A stretch of DNA of 32,881 nt from a virus (taxonomy: Duplodnaviria > Heunggongvirae > Uroviricota > Caudoviricetes): the IMG/VR virus record IMGVR_UViG_2579778650_000028. One strand, given 5' to 3'. A program made the translations under genes and the position numbers. The notes beneath the pieces are model-generated. The model was not told the DNA's origin and searched no databases. It saw nothing but the letters and a program-made list of their open reading frames with translations. Below are positions 1-7,288 of this stretch, in pieces; positions within the stretch are counted from its first letter, which is position 1, and the number at the start of each line of letters is the position of its first letter.

Positions 1-237
1 ATGATGTCTATAAATGAAGTTGTTAAACAGGACTGGCACCCCGCGCATGTTGTCGCGGCGGTGCATGTAAAAGGTTTTACTTTACGCTCTCTGTCCATTG
101 AAGCCGGTTTAAACCAGGATTCTTTAAAGAATGCCCTGTACCGCAAATGCCCAAAATATGAGCGCATTATTGCTGATGCTATTGGTGTTGCGCCGGAGGA
201 GATCTGGCCCAGCCGTTACGCTCGTAAGGTGGCATAA
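1..237 (+). CDS. ner: Ner-like DNA-binding transcriptional regulator (Ner/Nlp HTH family), 78 aa
   Basis: ORF begins at window base 1. Ner/Nlp-type signature (DWHPAHVVAAV...LRSLS...NALYRKCPK.ERIIADAIGV.PEEIWPSRY) and position directly upstream of the transposase gene. Sequence is not the Mu Ner as I recall it, so likely a D108-like or other immunity variant. Confidence 0.85.
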   Translation: MMSINEVVKQDWHPAHVVAAVHVKGFTLRSLSIEAGLNQDSLKNALYRKCPKYERIIADAIGVAPEEIWPSRYARKVA

Positions 238-239
238 AA

Positions 240-2333
240 ATGTTTGTGTCAGTTAATGAGCTTGTAGGGCTACCGGGTATGCCGGGAACTGCGCAAGGGG
301 TGCGGTATTCCATAAGGAAACTGGCCTCATCTGAGCATTTCAGGCGCAAACGTGCGGGTTCAAAAACCATTGAATACAGCATCGACTGCCTCCCTCCGGT
401 TACACAACGGGCGTTACGTGAGCGCCATGTAGCTCAACTGATGGCAACCGCCCCGCAGGAGATAACTACCCAGCCTCCTGTAAAGCGTGAACGCAAACAA
501 AATGTTGTACAGCCTGTTGAGGCATATCGCGGTTCGCCACAATTGGTAGAAGAGCGTCTGAATGCGCTTACGGAAAATCAACGTAAAGTTGCAGAAGCGC
601 GTATTGCTCTTGTCTGTGAAGTTCTACGAATTAGCCAGGAGCCGGGATTCAGTTGTGCCAGCGCTATACGTTTTATTGTGTCGCGGTTAGCGCAGGGTAA
701 CCTGGAAGAACGCCTGGAATCTTTGGTCATTACTGCTAATGCCCGTAAAGGGAAAGAGCGAACTCTGAGCGCAATTACGCTCAAACGTTGGATAGCTGCG
801 TTTAACAAAGCACAGAATGCCGCAGAACGATTGCTGTTACTGGCACCAGGAAAGCGCGACGAAATAAAACCGGAAGAAATTAGCTGGCTGCCTGAATTTC
901 TGGCGCAGTATCGTCAGGCTAACGGCAGGCCTATGTCAGAAGCATACGAGGATTTTGTCGCTGATTGGCAGCGTCGCCATGCGGACGAACCATACATGCT
1001 GGAGGTGATGCCTTCCTATGATGTTGTCCGGTATGCCATGAAAAAACTGCCGGAAGTGGTGAAACAAAAAGGGCGCGTTACCGGCAGTGAATACCGTCAG
1101 CTTGAAGGATTCACCCGCCGCGACTGGACAGCTATGCCGGTGAATTATGTCTGGATTGGTGACGGTCACGGTATGAAGCTGAAATGTGCGCATCCGGTTC
1201 ACGGGCGTCCATTTTCACCGGAAGTTACGTTTGTGATCGACGGTGGAACCCGGTTTGTGGTTGGCTGGAGTCTTGATCTTGCGGAGAACGTGTTCGCTGT
1301 TGCCGGGGCGATACAACACGGCATTCGCAATCACGGAAAACCATTCCTGTATTACTCGGATAATGGTTCCGGTGAAACGGCAGATATGCTGGATAAAGAG
1401 ATCGTCGGGATTCTGCCCCGCCTGGGGATTAACCACCCCACTGGTATTGCGGGAAATCCGCAGGGACGCGGCATTATTGAGCGCCTGAACCGGACGTTAC
1501 CGATGCGTATAGCAAGGAGGTATCGCACCTATTTCGGCAAGGGGGCTGACCGGGAATCGTTGCGAGTACTTAATCGTGATCTGCGTTCAGCGTTTAATGC
1601 CCTGCAACAGGACAAGCCACTGAGCGCCCGTCAGAAAGCCGCAATGCGCGAGCTGCCGTCTTGGTCAGAACTGATTGAGGCTATCCGTGAGGGGGTGGAG
1701 TGGTACAACAACCGCCCACATTCTGAATTGCCGATGAAACCAAACGGAAAACATTACAGCCCGGCAGAGTTCAGAAAAAAACGCTTAGCGGAAGAAGACA
1801 CTGAAATTGAGTGGCTGAGTGATATTGAGCTGCGTGACATGTTCCGCCCGATGGTGGAGCGTCCGGTAAGACGCTGCGAAATCCAGTGGCTGAACAATAT
1901 TTACTACGCGCCAGAGCTACGTGATGAACATGGTCGCAAGGTACTTATCAGCTATGACATTCACGATGCCGAGCGAATTACGGTACGCCGTAAGGACGGT
2001 AGCTTTATCTGTGAGGCGATATGGAACGGCAATAAACGCGCAGCCTTTCCTGTTACGGCTGAATATCACAAACAACAGCAACGTATTAAAGGAATGCGCA
2101 AGCGTGCTGAGGAAAAAATACGTGATGCTGAGGATGAAGGTATTCAGGTTATTGAACAAAAAACGATAGAACCCTGGCTGGATAATGTTTATCGCCCTGT
2201 TGGTAATGTGGTGACCGTTCAGCCGTTGAGGTGTGAGGAAGAGCATGATGATGAATACGAAACTGAGCGTGATGAATATCTGAATCATTCGCTGGATATT
2301 CTGGAACAGAACAGACGTAAAAAAGCCATTTAA
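240..2333 (+). CDS. A: Mu-type DDE transposase MuA, 697 aa
   Basis: Long ORF after ner with RBS-like AAGGTGG upstream. C-terminus ...DDEYETERDEYLNHSLDILEQNRRKKAI matches my recollection of the Mu A C-terminal tail (MuB/ClpX interaction). N-terminal DNA-binding region diverges from Mu. Confidence 0.95.
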   Translation: MFVSVNELVGLPGMPGTAQGVRYSIRKLASSEHFRRKRAGSKTIEYSIDCLPPVTQRALRERHVAQLMATAPQEITTQPPVKRERKQNVVQPVEAYRGSPQLVEERLNALTENQRKVAEARIALVCEVLRISQEPGFSCASAIRFIVSRLAQGNLEERLESLVITANARKGKERTLSAITLKRWIAAFNKAQNAAERLLLLAPGKRDEIKPEEISWLPEFLAQYRQANGRPMSEAYEDFVADWQRRHADEPYMLEVMPSYDVVRYAMKKLPEVVKQKGRVTGSEYRQLEGFTRRDWTAMPVNYVWIGDGHGMKLKCAHPVHGRPFSPEVTFVIDGGTRFVVGWSLDLAENVFAVAGAIQHGIRNHGKPFLYYSDNGSGETADMLDKEIVGILPRLGINHPTGIAGNPQGRGIIERLNRTLPMRIARRYRTYFGKGADRESLRVLNRDLRSAFNALQQDKPLSARQKAAMRELPSWSELIEAIREGVEWYNNRPHSELPMKPNGKHYSPAEFRKKRLAEEDTEIEWLSDIELRDMFRPMVERPVRRCEIQWLNNIYYAPELRDEHGRKVLISYDIHDAERITVRRKDGSFICEAIWNGNKRAAFPVTAEYHKQQQRIKGMRKRAEEKIRDAEDEGIQVIEQKTIEPWLDNVYRPVGNVVTVQPLRCEEEHDDEYETERDEYLNHSLDILEQNRRKKAI

Positions 2334-2371
2334 TTAACGTTTAAACAAAATTTAATTACGAGGTTATTCAG

Positions 2372-3310
2372 ATGAATATTTCCGATATTCGCGCAGAACT
2401 GCGCACGCTTGTAGAAAATGAAGAAACCACCTTTAAACAAATTGCTCTTGAGAGCGGGCTTTCTACCGGAACTATCAGTAGTTTTATCAATGATAAGTAC
2501 AACGGGGATAACGAGCGTGTTTCACAAATTCTGCAACGCTGGCTGGAAAAATATCATGCAGTTGCAGAACTACCTGAGCCGCCCCGCTTTGTGGAAACGC
2601 AGACGGTAAAACAAATCTGGACAAGTATGCGTTTTGCCAGCCTGACTGAAAGTATTGCTGTTGTATGTGGCAATCCTGGTGTGGGTAAAACCGAAGCGGC
2701 CCGTGAATATCGCCGCACCAATAACAATGTCTGGATGATCACCATTACGCCATCCTGTGCCAGCGTTCTGGAATGTCTTACTGAACTGGCGTTTGAGCTG
2801 GGAATGAATGACGCACCACGCCGTAAAGGGCCGCTCTCCCGCGCCCTGCGACGTCGCCTTGAAGGTACACAGGGGCTGGTTATCATCGACGAAGCTGATC
2901 ATCTTGGTGCCGAGGTTCTGGAAGAACTCCGCCTGTTACAGGAATCAACCCGTATTGGCCTTGTGCTGATGGGAAATCACCGGGTTTATTCAAATATGAC
3001 GGGGGGTAACAGAACGGTTGAATTTGCCCGTCTGTTTTCCCGTATTGCAAAGCGCACTGCAATTAATAAAACCAAAAAAGCCGATGTAAAAGCTATTGCG
3101 GATGCCTGGCAGATTAACGGTGAAAAAGAACTGGAGTTATTACAGCAGATTGCGCAGAAACCAGGTGCGCTTCGCATTCTGAATCATTCACTTCGCCTTG
3201 CCGCCATGACGGCTCACGGTAAAGGTGAGCGTGTTAACGAAGATTATCTGCGTCAGGCTTTCCGTGAATTAGACCTGGACGTTGATATTTCAACGCTGCT
3301 GCGTAATTAA
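2372..3310 (+). CDS. B: Mu B ATP-dependent target DNA activator (AAA+), 312 aa
   Basis: Walker A GNPGVGKTEA and Walker B LVIIDEADHL. Length and sequence match Mu B as recalled; GAGG RBS 8 nt upstream. Confidence 0.95.
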   Translation: MNISDIRAELRTLVENEETTFKQIALESGLSTGTISSFINDKYNGDNERVSQILQRWLEKYHAVAELPEPPRFVETQTVKQIWTSMRFASLTESIAVVCGNPGVGKTEAAREYRRTNNNVWMITITPSCASVLECLTELAFELGMNDAPRRKGPLSRALRRRLEGTQGLVIIDEADHLGAEVLEELRLLQESTRIGLVLMGNHRVYSNMTGGNRTVEFARLFSRIAKRTAINKTKKADVKAIADAWQINGEKELELLQQIAQKPGALRILNHSLRLAAMTAHGKGERVNEDYLRQAFRELDLDVDISTLLRN

Positions 3311-3325
3311 GAAGGAGAAGAAATT

Positions 3326-3553
3326 ATGATGGCCCGAAATATAAAAATGGCAACGGATGCGCAGAACTGGTTACAGGCGCGCGGGAGTCATGTAAATGAA
3401 TCATATCTCGGCGTGGCGCGTCCGATTCTTGAAATCACTTACCCACCGGTGGAACTGGTAAAAAACGCGGTCAGAATTATGGAGCATAAGTCCGGGGTGG
3501 CCCGTTCTGTATGGACGGCCCGTCTTAATGGTTGCCAGATTATCTGGAGATAA
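3326..3553 (+). CDS. small early protein, 75 aa, in the position of Mu kil (first gene after B)
   Basis: Strong RBS (GAAGGAGAAG) 6 nt upstream of ATG; tightly packed after B. Function inferred from position only. Confidence 0.5.
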
Positions 3554-3555
3554 CG

Positions 3556-3786
3556 ATGTGTACTAAAGCTGAAAAATATATTGAATGGGTTAAACGGGTA
3601 CAGAATAACAATGTGGCTCTGACTGCATTTAATTGCCCCAAATGCAAAGAGCAAATTATGACGCAATGCTCACCAGAAAATGAAGTATGGGACTCCTTTG
3701 CATGTTGTCCGTGGTGCAGCGCGGTTTTCTTTAAGCAGGTAAAAGGCGCGAAGGTAAAAGCCAGCGCAGTTATTCAGAATCAATAA
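3556..3786 (+). CDS. small Cys-rich (zinc-ribbon-like) early protein, about 77 aa
   Basis: ATG at 3556 preceded by GGAGA; CPKC...CCPWC motifs. Track ORF 3532..3786 uses an upstream alternative start. Confidence 0.5.
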   Translation: MCTKAEKYIEWVKRVQNNNVALTAFNCPKCKEQIMTQCSPENEVWDSFACCPWCSAVFFKQVKGAKVKASAVIQNQ

Positions 3787-3797
3787 GGAGACGCAAA

Positions 3798-4067
3798 ATG
3801 GCAAAAGTTATCTTTGAGTTTACATGGCTGGAAAGTAGTGACGGTTGCAATGGGCGCAGAGAAGTTCTGGATGCAAAAGCATGTCTTGCAGATATCTCGC
3901 CAACGGAAAATATCGGGCCTCATGATTTACTGGCAAATATCGTCCTGACTATGGCTCCTGAAATTATTAAAAAGGCCAAAGATGAGATGCTGACCACTAT
4001 GAAGAAAGTGGGTATGGAAGCTGAATGTGATTTAGTACCACATCCGGTGAATGCGGTTAAACATTAA
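3798..4067 (+). CDS. hypothetical early protein, 89 aa
   Basis: Strong RBS TAAGGAGA upstream of ATG; co-oriented and tightly packed in the early operon. Confidence 0.55.
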   Translation: MAKVIFEFTWLESSDGCNGRREVLDAKACLADISPTENIGPHDLLANIVLTMAPEIIKKAKDEMLTTMKKVGMEAECDLVPHPVNAVKH

Positions 4068-4087
4068 TTCGCAAAGGAACGCTGACA

Positions 4088-4507
4088 ATGAACGTCAAAA
4101 TCCGAAATGAAATTCAGGCATTAATCCGAATTCAGGAACGCAATAACAACGGTGGTGAATTACGCGAGTTTATTTGCGCCCGGAAAGTTGATGATTGTGG
4201 TGAAAAGACTTACCTGATTGCTTTCGACCATTACAGCATCTGTGCACGTTATTGCGGCGAAAGCATATCCCGCGCCATTGCATTTGGCGGTGCGTTCAAC
4301 GTGGATTTATGGGAGTACGTCATGGACCGGGAATACATCTGCGCATCAGACCCTGAAGCCCGTGAAATGTGGCAGCGTATCTGGCGCGATTACCGGTTAA
4401 TGGCAAAAGGCTGGGCGCGCTGCTGTTATTCCTCGCTTGCCCTGAAAGCGGTTCAGTTATCGCTGCGGCATATTCCGGCATCACTGCGCGAGCCTCTGCT
4501 GTACTGA
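4088..4507 (+). CDS. hypothetical early protein, 139 aa, several Cys
   Basis: RBS AAGGAA upstream; ORF fills the gap with no competing frame. Confidence 0.55.
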   Translation: MNVKIRNEIQALIRIQERNNNGGELREFICARKVDDCGEKTYLIAFDHYSICARYCGESISRAIAFGGAFNVDLWEYVMDREYICASDPEAREMWQRIWRDYRLMAKGWARCCYSSLALKAVQLSLRHIPASLREPLLY

Positions 4508-5980: not shown

Positions 5981-6510
5981 TGTTTTTTAAAACGTCAAAT
6001 CCCGCAGCACTGCTGGCATGGGACCAGTTTATGGCGGACTGCCTGAAACTACGCGAAGAAGCCCGCCATCTTGATAAGGTTCTGGGTTGTGGTTGCCGGT
6101 CAGTATTCAGCACAGGTATTGGTGGGCGTCATTTTCATGGCGTGAATTTTCCGGGGAATGAGCGACCTTTCTCGCCGGAGTTGTGGACTGTACAACGCTC
6201 CGCATCAGGTAACAGTTGCAGGCCAAGAACATCGCGCATTCCTGCACATCTGCGGGAGCAGTCAAAAGAGCTGGCGAAAATATGGCAGGAGAATATTCCG
6301 GTCACTTATGCCCGTACTGACGCTCTCTTACCCGCACTGGGACTGGATTTCAGCGCAACAATATTCGGCCCGCTCCGGTGGTTCCGTGTTGGTGATGTGA
6401 TTTACGTCATGACAGGGATGACTCCCGCACAGGGCCGCATGACTGAAATCCTTTCTGACGAATTTATCCGGGCGCAAAAACAGGCGGAGGTAAACAATGG
6501 AAAACAATGA
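5980..6510 (+). CDS. hypothetical early protein, about 176 aa
   Basis: ATG at 5980 overlaps the upstream stop (TGATG) with GGAGG 8 nt upstream. Track ORF 5941..6510 begins at an upstream TTG. Confidence 0.5.
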   Translation: MFFKTSNPAALLAWDQFMADCLKLREEARHLDKVLGCGCRSVFSTGIGGRHFHGVNFPGNERPFSPELWTVQRSASGNSCRPRTSRIPAHLREQSKELAKIWQENIPVTYARTDALLPALGLDFSATIFGPLRWFRVGDVIYVMTGMTPAQGRMTEILSDEFIRAQKQAEVNNGKQ

Positions 6511-6679
6511 AACATCGTATTCGTGGCTGGGGAAATTTACCACGGTGAAACAGGAATGCCCGACCTGCGGTAATGAATCCCCTGAATATCTGAAAGAGTG
6601 CCCTCATTGTGGCGGGCAGAAATGTAACCACTGCGATATGGGCGATGACACGGCGTGCATGAATTGTGAAGGTGAGTGA
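6497..6679 (+). CDS. small double zinc-ribbon protein, 60 aa
   Basis: Four CxxC pairs (CPTCG, CPHCG, CNHC, CMNC); GGAGG RBS upstream. Confidence 0.5.
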   Translation: MENNETSYSWLGKFTTVKQECPTCGNESPEYLKECPHCGGQKCNHCDMGDDTACMNCEGE

Positions 6680-6680
6680 C

Positions 6681-6989
6681 ATGAATAATGGTGTATTTTC
6701 AAAATCAGAAGAGCTTGCCGCCCTGCTGATTGCCGGTGGTTTGCCGAAAAAAGAAGTGCATGACTTTGTGAATTTTGTATATGAGCCGTCTCATGAAAAA
6801 GCTATTGATGAGGTCATGGCGTACCGGTTTGGCATTATTGCTGAGTCACTGAGTCCTCACTGGATTATTGAAAATCTCCGCGCTATTGCTGATGGCAACG
6901 ATAAATCAGCAGCCGTTGCTGCACTGGATGTGTTACGGCAAATGAGTCTGAAATTTTATCCTGAATTTATTCTGAGGGCCGCAAAATGA
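6681..6989 (+). CDS. hypothetical early protein, about 102 aa
   Basis: ATG at 6681 directly after the upstream stop, with GAAGGTGAG upstream. Track ORF starts at GTG 6666. Confidence 0.5.
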   Translation: MNNGVFSKSEELAALLIAGGLPKKEVHDFVNFVYEPSHEKAIDEVMAYRFGIIAESLSPHWIIENLRAIADGNDKSAAVAALDVLRQMSLKFYPEFILRAAK

Positions 6990-7288
6990 ACAATGAAGAT
7001 AAATTTACTCCCCTTAATATTGATAACGTCATGGCTGAAAAAGGGATGCTGGAACGTGTTCGCGCTATCGTTGAATATGGTATTAAGCATAATCTCACCG
7101 CCAGAGAAGTCCGTGACATTATCAACCGCGAAATGAATCGTCTGGAAACAGTAGTGGCACTGCAAAATGAAACAGCCCGCGAGGAGTACATCCGCCGCAG
7201 GCTGGGGTTATCAGACCAGGATATTGTTACTGACGCTCATGTGTTTGAGGCTTTTGAGATCCGTCAGCATCTGGGTCTAACGAACTGA
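6986..7288 (+). CDS. hypothetical early protein, 100 aa
   Basis: Start overlaps the upstream stop (ATGA); co-oriented with the early operon. Confidence 0.5.
   Translation: MNNEDKFTPLNIDNVMAEKGMLERVRAIVEYGIKHNLTAREVRDIINREMNRLETVVALQNETAREEYIRRRLGLSDQDIVTDAHVFEAFEIRQHLGLTN

Follow-up and report, generated by a model that had tools for sequence, protein, structure and literature searches.

The window analysed here, a stretch of 32,881 nucleotides, belongs to a Muvirus, covers the left and middle parts of its genome and opens within ner (Table 1). An earlier note on this DNA had proposed that a small zinc-ribbon gene occupies positions 3556-3786, directly after the kil-position gene in the semi-essential (SE) early region, and that its product has about 77 amino acids. 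Direct reading of the sequence confirmed the gene at this position. An ATG at 3556 and a TAA at 3784-3786 delimit 77 codons (76 residues and the stop), a GGAG ribosome-binding site precedes the start, and the kil stop codon (TAA, 3551-3553) leaves a gap of 2 nt to the new frame. A longer version beginning with a TTG at 3532 was rejected, as this codon lies inside kil and lacks a ribosome-binding site. The frame is a genuine gene and not a chance one, because full-length homologues of its product were found (best E 6.6e-44), the sequence is under constraint (dN/dS of 0.32 in comparison with Mu gp6, with dS of 0.45) and GenBank records of 14 Mu-type phages carry a CDS at the same position. The kil product encoded in the window equals Mu Kil except for one additional N-terminal Met.

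Table 1. Coordinates of the gp6-type gene, its sequence elements and neighbouring genes in the window.
Feature	Position (nt)	Strand	Basis and remarks
ner, partial; start of the gene order	1..237		ORF list
Transposase A	240..2333		ORF list
B	2372..3310		ORF list
kil orthologue, directly upstream of the gp6-type gene	3326..3553	+	PHROG 2743 'Kil', E 2.8e-43
Ribosome-binding site GGAG	3546..3549	+	Inside the last kil codons, 6 nt before the ATG; sequence read directly
gp6-type CDS, 76 aa + stop (77 codons)	3556..3786	+	ORF list and sequence; orthologue of Mu gp6 by sequence
N-terminal amphipathic helix, residues 3-17 (predicted); conserved Y8, W/Y11, R/K14	3562..3606	+	AlphaFold, column counts
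Allelic/mosaic patch, codons 14-50	3595..3705	+	16 of 17 amino-acid differences from Mu gp6
First zinc knuckle (predicted), C27-P-K-C30	3634..3645	+	Column counts; predicted turn of strands 1/2
W45-D46-S47 motif, strand 3, just before the second knuckle	3688..3696	+	Column counts
Non-conserved C50 preceding the second knuckle	3703-3705	+	Column counts
Second zinc knuckle (predicted), C51-P-W-C54	3706..3717	+	Column counts; predicted turn of strands 3/4
gp7-slot gene, 89 aa, directly downstream	3798..4067	+	PHROG 2230 match

The counterpart at the same position in the RefSeq record of Mu is Mup06 (NP_050610), a hypothetical protein annotated as 'gp6; previously called E5'. The two proteins are 78% identical over all 76 residues (tblastn E 8e-33), and the gene order ner-A-B-kil-gp6 is common to the window and Mu. 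Both full-length similarity and synteny place the gene in the Mu gp6 family, as the orthologue of Mu gp6 (Mup06/E5). Its product is 100% identical to SfMu ORF6 and to the counterparts in PhiR68_1 and vB_YpM_5/6. At the nucleotide level, Yersinia phages vB_YpM_5 and vB_YpM_6 match positions 3300-4100 with 100% identity and Escherichia phage PhiR68_1 with 98.6%; SfMu, D108 and Mu match the same region at 92-98% identity over part of its length. Mu gp6, SfMu ORF6 and D108 gene 6 are thus like the window gene in position and length, with identities of 76-100%, and their products share with the window protein the four cysteines of the knuckles as well as the WDS and FFK motifs. DNA containing kil and gp6 was also detected in 46 of 5,426 complete E. 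coli genomes, and was chromosomal in every case. The SfMu paper (PMC4406740) lists ORF6 as having no known function and gives its identity to Mu and D108 as 77%.

The gene, its identical protein and the family are already in public databases, under the names Phage_Mu_gp6 and PHROG 3786. The PHROG 3786 HMM matched residues 1-76 with profile positions 10-86 of 86 (E 1.9e-39, 134.6 bits). Membership in PF26833 ('Phage_Mu_gp6') comes via the labels of homologues, on which it is precomputed both at 64-99% identity and for distant sequences at 24-33%. Neither PHROG 3786 nor PF26833 carries a functional assignment. In the literature on Mu gp6/E5/Mup06, SfMu ORF6, Phage_Mu_gp6 and PHROG 3786 we found no paper that assigns a function, and phage Tn-seq and HIDEN-SEQ preprints contained no usable data on any gp6-family member. 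The remark in the earlier note that such proteins are uncharacterised even in Mu therefore stands as far as function is concerned, but the gene is annotated and its family already has a name. With the query protein, a scan of a Pfam set that lacks PF26833 returned only sub-threshold generic ribbons (zf-LITAF-like, E 0.01; Elf1, E 0.04), and single-protein searches of NCBIfam, PADLOC (E <= 1) and PDB sequences gave nothing above threshold.

In a simple scan of the + strand around the gene, nothing resembled a promoter, and one weak terminator-like hairpin was detected within the CDS, which is no more than in shuffled sequence; an Rfam scan of the whole window yielded no RNA families. Given the lack of an internal promoter and of a convincing terminator, together with the short gap to kil, the gp6-type gene belongs to the long early (Pe) transcript, from which its product is made, and its translation is probably coupled to that of kil, directly upstream. 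The same close arrangement could point to a protein dedicated to Kil, as a partner or as a modulator that, for instance, tempers or times the Kil block of cell division. The 2-nt gap and a ribosome-binding site inside kil fit such a role, as do the adjacency of kil and gp6 in all Muvirus records and in one divergent Mu-like locus (L006), and the finding that deletion of the SE region relieves host killing (PMC3325207). However, gp6 relatives are spread far more widely than those of Kil, and neither the distant Mu-like loci nor any of the non-Mu phages have a recognisable Kil upstream of their gp6 relatives, and we consider a role as Kil partner highly improbable.

Immediately downstream, the window and Mu differ. 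The product of the gp7-slot gene gave no BLASTP alignment with Mu gp7/E6, and the two proteins have only the first five residues (MAKVI) in common. Mu E6 (Mup07) is gnarl2, a small accessory protein shown by experiment to change the O-antigen of the host and to make wild E. coli sensitive to other phages (PMC12373910 and its preprint). With gnarl2 in Mu and alternative, unrelated cargo in this window, the position that follows gp6 is a site at which accessory genes are swapped. The example of gnarl2 shows that host-directed effectors are encoded in the neighbourhood of gp6. It resembles the gp6-type protein in being a small accessory product of the early SE region that lacks enzymatic features, but the two are unrelated in sequence (hhalign probability 0.2%) and gnarl2 has no cysteine motif.

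Profile searches, which the earlier note had suggested along with structure prediction, provided the relatives needed for analysis of residue conservation. A profile built from eight close homologues was searched against 1.84 billion representative proteins and gave 216 matches at E <= 1e-3, nearly all of them 70-100 residues long; conservation was assessed in an alignment of the query and 136 short relatives (137 sequences, approximately 25% mean identity). The CPKC and CCPWC motifs pointed out in the earlier note are present, at residues 27-30 (nt 3634-3645) and 50-54 (nt 3703-3717). The protein has seven cysteines, four of which are conserved with the spacing CPxC-x20-CPxC: C27 (127 of the 137 sequences), C30 (134), C51 (135) and C54 (135), accompanied by P28 (134) and P52 (126). 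In a curated alignment of 94 sequences (A3, 25% mean identity), these four cysteines were the sole invariant columns. The expectation that the cysteines are conserved in homologues was thus borne out for C27, C30, C51 and C54 (127-135 of 137), but not for C50 of the CCPWC motif, which occurs in 14 of 137 only, nor for C2 and C38. About nine representatives without C27 carry x-P-C-C instead, so that their first knuckle keeps two cysteines. An x-P-C-C first knuckle, an unusual alternative zinc-ligand arrangement, was also seen at two genome loci (L054 and L058).

Conservation extends beyond the cysteines. W45 is present in 101, D46 in 122 and Ser or Thr at position 47 in 130 of the 137 sequences, and other strongly conserved positions include Y8, an aromatic residue at 11, G19, L22, Y/F25, T36, P39-P40, G42 and F58-F59-K60. 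Two sequences depart from these patterns. Mu gp6 itself (L001, 4542..4772) has Arg at position 45, where the window copy is among the 101 sequences with Trp; judged from its sequence, the reference phage Mu may carry an atypical or weakened gp6 allele. In addition, a cluster representative from Salmonella Worthington (P0001), 99% identical to the window protein, contains a C30Y replacement that would destroy the first knuckle, and is either a loss-of-function prophage variant or a sequencing error.

An AlphaFold model based on 8 close sequences only was poor (pLDDT 64), and a model with seven distant members added reached a pLDDT of 93.2 and a pTM of 0.78. The latter model consists of a helix (residues 3-17) followed by five strands (22-26, 33-37, 44-50, 57-63 and 66-71) that form a single sheet, with both CPxC motifs located at hairpin turns, between strands 1 and 2 and between strands 3 and 4. 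Zinc ribbons are defined by knuckles at hairpin turns. Structure prediction and profile searches, the checks suggested in the earlier note, therefore agree with its proposal, and on conserved sequence and predicted fold the protein is a predicted Cys4 zinc ribbon. The four cysteines would bind zinc, with the metal holding the fold together. When the model was compared with known structures, Foldseek found a best E of 0.7 in the PDB, the top entries being archaeal ribosomal zinc-ribbon proteins and LysW. In BFVD, good matches were obtained for uncharacterised family members only, whose independently predicted structures superpose on the model (TM 0.68-0.86, rmsd 1.2-3.5 A). When a profile of the 94 relatives was run on PDB sequences, the only matches were to 'Y-x-CPxC' knuckles of the C2H2/CTCF type, and these were rejected as motif-level. 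A tally of Pfam families over the 94 members showed generic ribbon families only, headed by HypA (32), Zn_ribbon_3 (27), the IS1595 ribbon (24), YnfU (16) and the TFIIB type (16).

Zinc ribbons commonly contact nucleic acids or RNA polymerase. Among phage proteins, Mu Com is a translational activator of mom, and P2 Ogr/P4 Delta are transcription activators. The gp6-type protein could likewise be a regulator that binds nucleic acid or RNA polymerase and tunes early gene expression; consistent with this, the window copy has a net charge of +4 and a Lys-rich C-terminal tail, the closest folds in the PDB (E about 0.7) are ribosomal ones, and weak sub-threshold matches were observed to ribbons of the Elf1, TFIIB, IS1595-transposase, HVO_2753 and RpoP types. 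However, these ribbon matches are at knuckle level only and fall below every curated cut-off. Members of the family differ in net charge from -11 to +13 (mean near +1), and a basic surface is not conserved beyond R14 and K60; this wide range makes the family a poor fit to a generic nucleic-acid binder. Com and Ogr/Delta are also of about 60-75 residues with a fold that depends on a Cys4 zinc site, but differ from gp6 in topology (in the model, gp6 has an N-terminal helix and a five-stranded sheet) and in time of expression, being involved in late or mom control. Models of Com, Ogr/Delta and DksA/TraR gave no match at Pfam E <= 1 and were not among the families listed in the tally of the 94 members, although HMMER filters can conceal matches above E of approximately 0.1. 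Finally, the family occurs in Mu-like, lambdoid, Chi-like and virulent Pseudomonas phages, whose regulatory circuits are wholly different. On balance, we regard a regulator of early gene expression as unlikely.

The distribution of the family was broader than its name implies. Distant members (24-33% identity) were found in early operons of divergent Mu-like prophages, located after B or kil (L005, L006), after Mor (L003) or between MuB and DUF3164/GemA (L018-L020, L025, L039-L042 and L055). Outside this group, tblastn detected members of the same family in phage Chi (gp72), many Chi-like Salmonella phages and Serratia phage Smarc5, in Pseudomonas phages KPP25 (ORF037), phiR18, KPP23 (ORF054, as a C-terminal domain), RSP (with a further domain fused at the N-terminus) and vB_Pae-SS2019XI, and in PMBT3, Lana and Scapp. 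The proteins of Chi, KPP25, phiR18, KPP23, PMBT3, Lana and Scapp (tblastn E down to 1e-9) share the pattern CPxC...WD[ST]...CPxC...F-[FH]-K and a similar predicted fold (TM 0.68-0.86). As in Mu, the copies in these phages are all found in arrays of small early or hypothetical genes; unlike Mu, these phages are non-transposable and mostly virulent, have no neighbour genes in common with Mu, and in some cases carry the domain with an N-terminal fusion. No common neighbour genes were found among the Chi, KPP23 and KPP25 loci either. Hosts span Alpha-, Beta- and Gammaproteobacteria, and those named include Escherichia, Salmonella, Enterobacter, Morganella, Vibrio, Pantoea, Yersinia, Erwinia, Pseudomonas, Vreelandella, Rudaea, Achromobacter, Rhodocyclus and Martelella. 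Three candidates were discarded as false positives: L060 from Eggerthellaceae, in which the first knuckle is absent; P0062, a C2H2 array; and P0124, judged from its repetitive sequence.

Domain fusions gave no usable functional clue. A metagenomic protein of 237 residues (P0074) has a C-terminal gp6 domain fused to a MazG-like dATP/dGTP pyrophosphohydrolase domain (PF04447). Other fusion partners, including that of KPP23 ORF054 (L008, 4560..5213), were PHROGs of unknown function (e.g., PHROG 19710) or had no match.

The gp6 family is thus not confined to transposable phages. For one subfamily, about 30 of 41 IMG/VR loci, which include phages of 84-88 kb, had no MuA, MuB, GemA or Mor nearby, and the same was true of half of the genome loci; the subfamily loci were retrieved with a 12-sequence alignment, and single distant proteins used as queries returned nothing. 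This distribution bears on a possible role as an accessory factor of transposition or replication. We know of no assignment of the SE phenotypes arm (amplified replication of Mu) and cim (control of immunity) to a particular ORF, and gp6 might lie behind one of them: arm and cim map to the 4.3-10 kb SE region of Mu (PMC4553209), the gene is situated between B and gam in Mu, and many distant members are found between MuB and DUF3164/GemA. However, such a role would not fit the many loci devoid of MuA, MuB, GemA and Mor, nor the occurrence of the family in Chi-like, KPP25-like and lambdoid phages, which do not transpose, and it appears quite improbable. Since early or accessory gene arrays of lambdoid and virulent phages contain the family as well as those of transposable ones, the target of the protein would not be the Mu transposition machinery.

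The lambdoid prophages (L021, 6439..7222; L022-L038, L056 and L059, including Yersinia) showed a recurrent arrangement, in which the gp6-family gene is the first ORF past a CI-like repressor gene. It lies 173 nt downstream of the repressor in the same orientation, opposite to Cro, YdaT and a lambda-P-like gene. In the AT-rich gap between the repressor and the gp6-family gene, a simple scan found no promoter or terminator. This slot is the start of the early-left region, where lambda carries ral.

The protein could accordingly be an anti-defence or anti-restriction factor that binds a defence protein early in infection, either with a function analogous to that of Rac Lar and lambda Ral or as an inhibitor of some further immune system. 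Lar and Ral are also small accessory proteins of prophage early regions, and Lar is Cys-rich, but the likeness is one of analogy only, as neither has detectable sequence similarity to the gp6-type protein. Early expression in an accessory-rich region, next to a slot filled by gnarl2 in Mu and by an unrelated gene here, would suit a counter-defence protein, as would the lambdoid location, the occurrence of the family in both temperate and virulent phages, and the presence of a variable patch within an otherwise conserved gene. Against this, Lar (PF14354, TIGR03655) gave no match at E <= 1 in Pfam or NCBIfam and was not among the 25 families listed as matching the largest numbers of the 94 relatives; the protein resembles no characterised effector, and PADLOC gave no family at E <= 1. 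The text supplements of the gnarl2 accessory-gene screen contained no match to gp6-type sequence strings or identifiers. In addition, the WD[ST] motif and K60 are nearly invariant from Alpha- to Gammaproteobacteria, which would be expected of a conserved housekeeping target more than of defence systems with a patchy distribution. We therefore rate anti-defence as the specific function as distinctly unlikely. The broader suggestion in the earlier note, a host-takeover or anti-defence effector, is a plausible hypothesis with circumstantial support from early expression, occurrence in unrelated phage types, the neighbouring slot that holds gnarl2 in Mu and the variable central patch.

The variable patch itself was evident in the comparison with Mu. 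The protein differs from Mu gp6 at 17 residues, of which 16 fall within codons 14-50 and the other is residue 3, and codons 51-76 contain no amino-acid changes. Within the patch, pS was 0.51 and pN 0.26. At the nucleotide level kil is 100% identical to that of Mu, and identity falls in mid-gp6 to as little as 17-21 of 30 nt, with values there of approximately 57-87% per 30 nt, and rises again near the end of the gene, so that mosaic junctions lie within gp6. Mu and D108 carry an allele of the patch different from that of the window copy, and at least two alleles and one intermediate (P0004) occur among enterobacterial Mu-like prophages. The patch is either ordinary mosaic recombination or a swap of a specificity-determining surface; its high pS speaks for an origin by recombination with an allele that had diverged. 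The variation may be mosaicism alone, with no diversification driven by a target.

Taken with the predicted fold, the conserved polar residues suggest what kind of protein this is. No catalytic-looking motif was found, and the protein is too small for most enzymes. T36, E43, W45-D46-S/T47, K60 and Y8 cluster near the zinc site in sequence. The absence of an enzyme-like motif and the presence of these polar residues near the zinc site make a zinc-stabilised binding module the most likely interpretation. We favour, with roughly even confidence, a non-enzymatic module stabilised by zinc that binds a conserved proteobacterial macromolecule and is dispensable on laboratory hosts. In this model, the protein folds as a helix on a five-stranded sheet stabilised by the predicted Cys4 zinc site, and would attach to and modulate some macromolecule that Proteobacteria share, a host protein being the likeliest candidate. 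The wide spread of net charge in the family, its occurrence in phages with unrelated replication and regulatory strategies and the presence of host-modifying gnarl2 in the adjacent slot of Mu fit this reading. It would be an accessory protein, dispensable for growth on laboratory hosts, because Mu deleted for the whole SE region still infects, forms lysogens and is less toxic to the host (PMC3325207), an observation that concerns the region and not gp6 alone.

A more specific version of the favoured binding-module reading is possible but doubtful: the gp6 family could be a widespread and previously unrecognised class of early effectors that bind one conserved proteobacterial protein through the WD[ST]/K60 surface, with the patch of residues 14-50 tuning specificity. 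If this were true, the target would be a component of a core pathway or a broadly distributed immune sensor, and the family would be a tool for host takeover or counter-defence common to Mu, Chi-like, lambdoid and Pseudomonas phages. The finding as it stands reveals no new kind of system. Mu is a classic model phage, yet its semi-essential early region has 14 ORFs of which the majority still lack a function, and only recently was one neighbour of gp6, E6 (gnarl2), shown to remodel the host surface; gp6 is the Mu representative of a cross-phage family with an invariant Cys4 site, a confidently predicted fold without a solved relative and conserved surface residues. An anonymous ORF thereby becomes a well-defined target, and identification of its partner would annotate hundreds of phage genes.

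Several other features of the window were observed. A second Cys-rich ORF of 60 residues (6497..6679, + strand) is the orthologue of Mu gp13/E14 by sequence and matches PHROG 5584. It contains four CxxC-type pairs (CPTC, CPHC, CNHC and CMNC), a pattern that suggests two zinc sites, and has weak sub-threshold matches to the DnaJ CXXCXGXG and Lar families. Homology between this ORF and the gp6-type protein was considered and rejected, the similarity being at knuckle level only (hhalign 73%; 33 columns aligned, including a gap of 15 residues). Transposase A of the window has 697 residues, compared with 663 annotated for Mu A (1328..3319). According to the SfMu paper, ORF11 and ORF14 are unique to the SfMu lineage. 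In the window, two ORFs (6666..6989 and 6986..7288) occupy the place taken by gp14 alone in Mu, an arrangement that matches vB_YpM_5.
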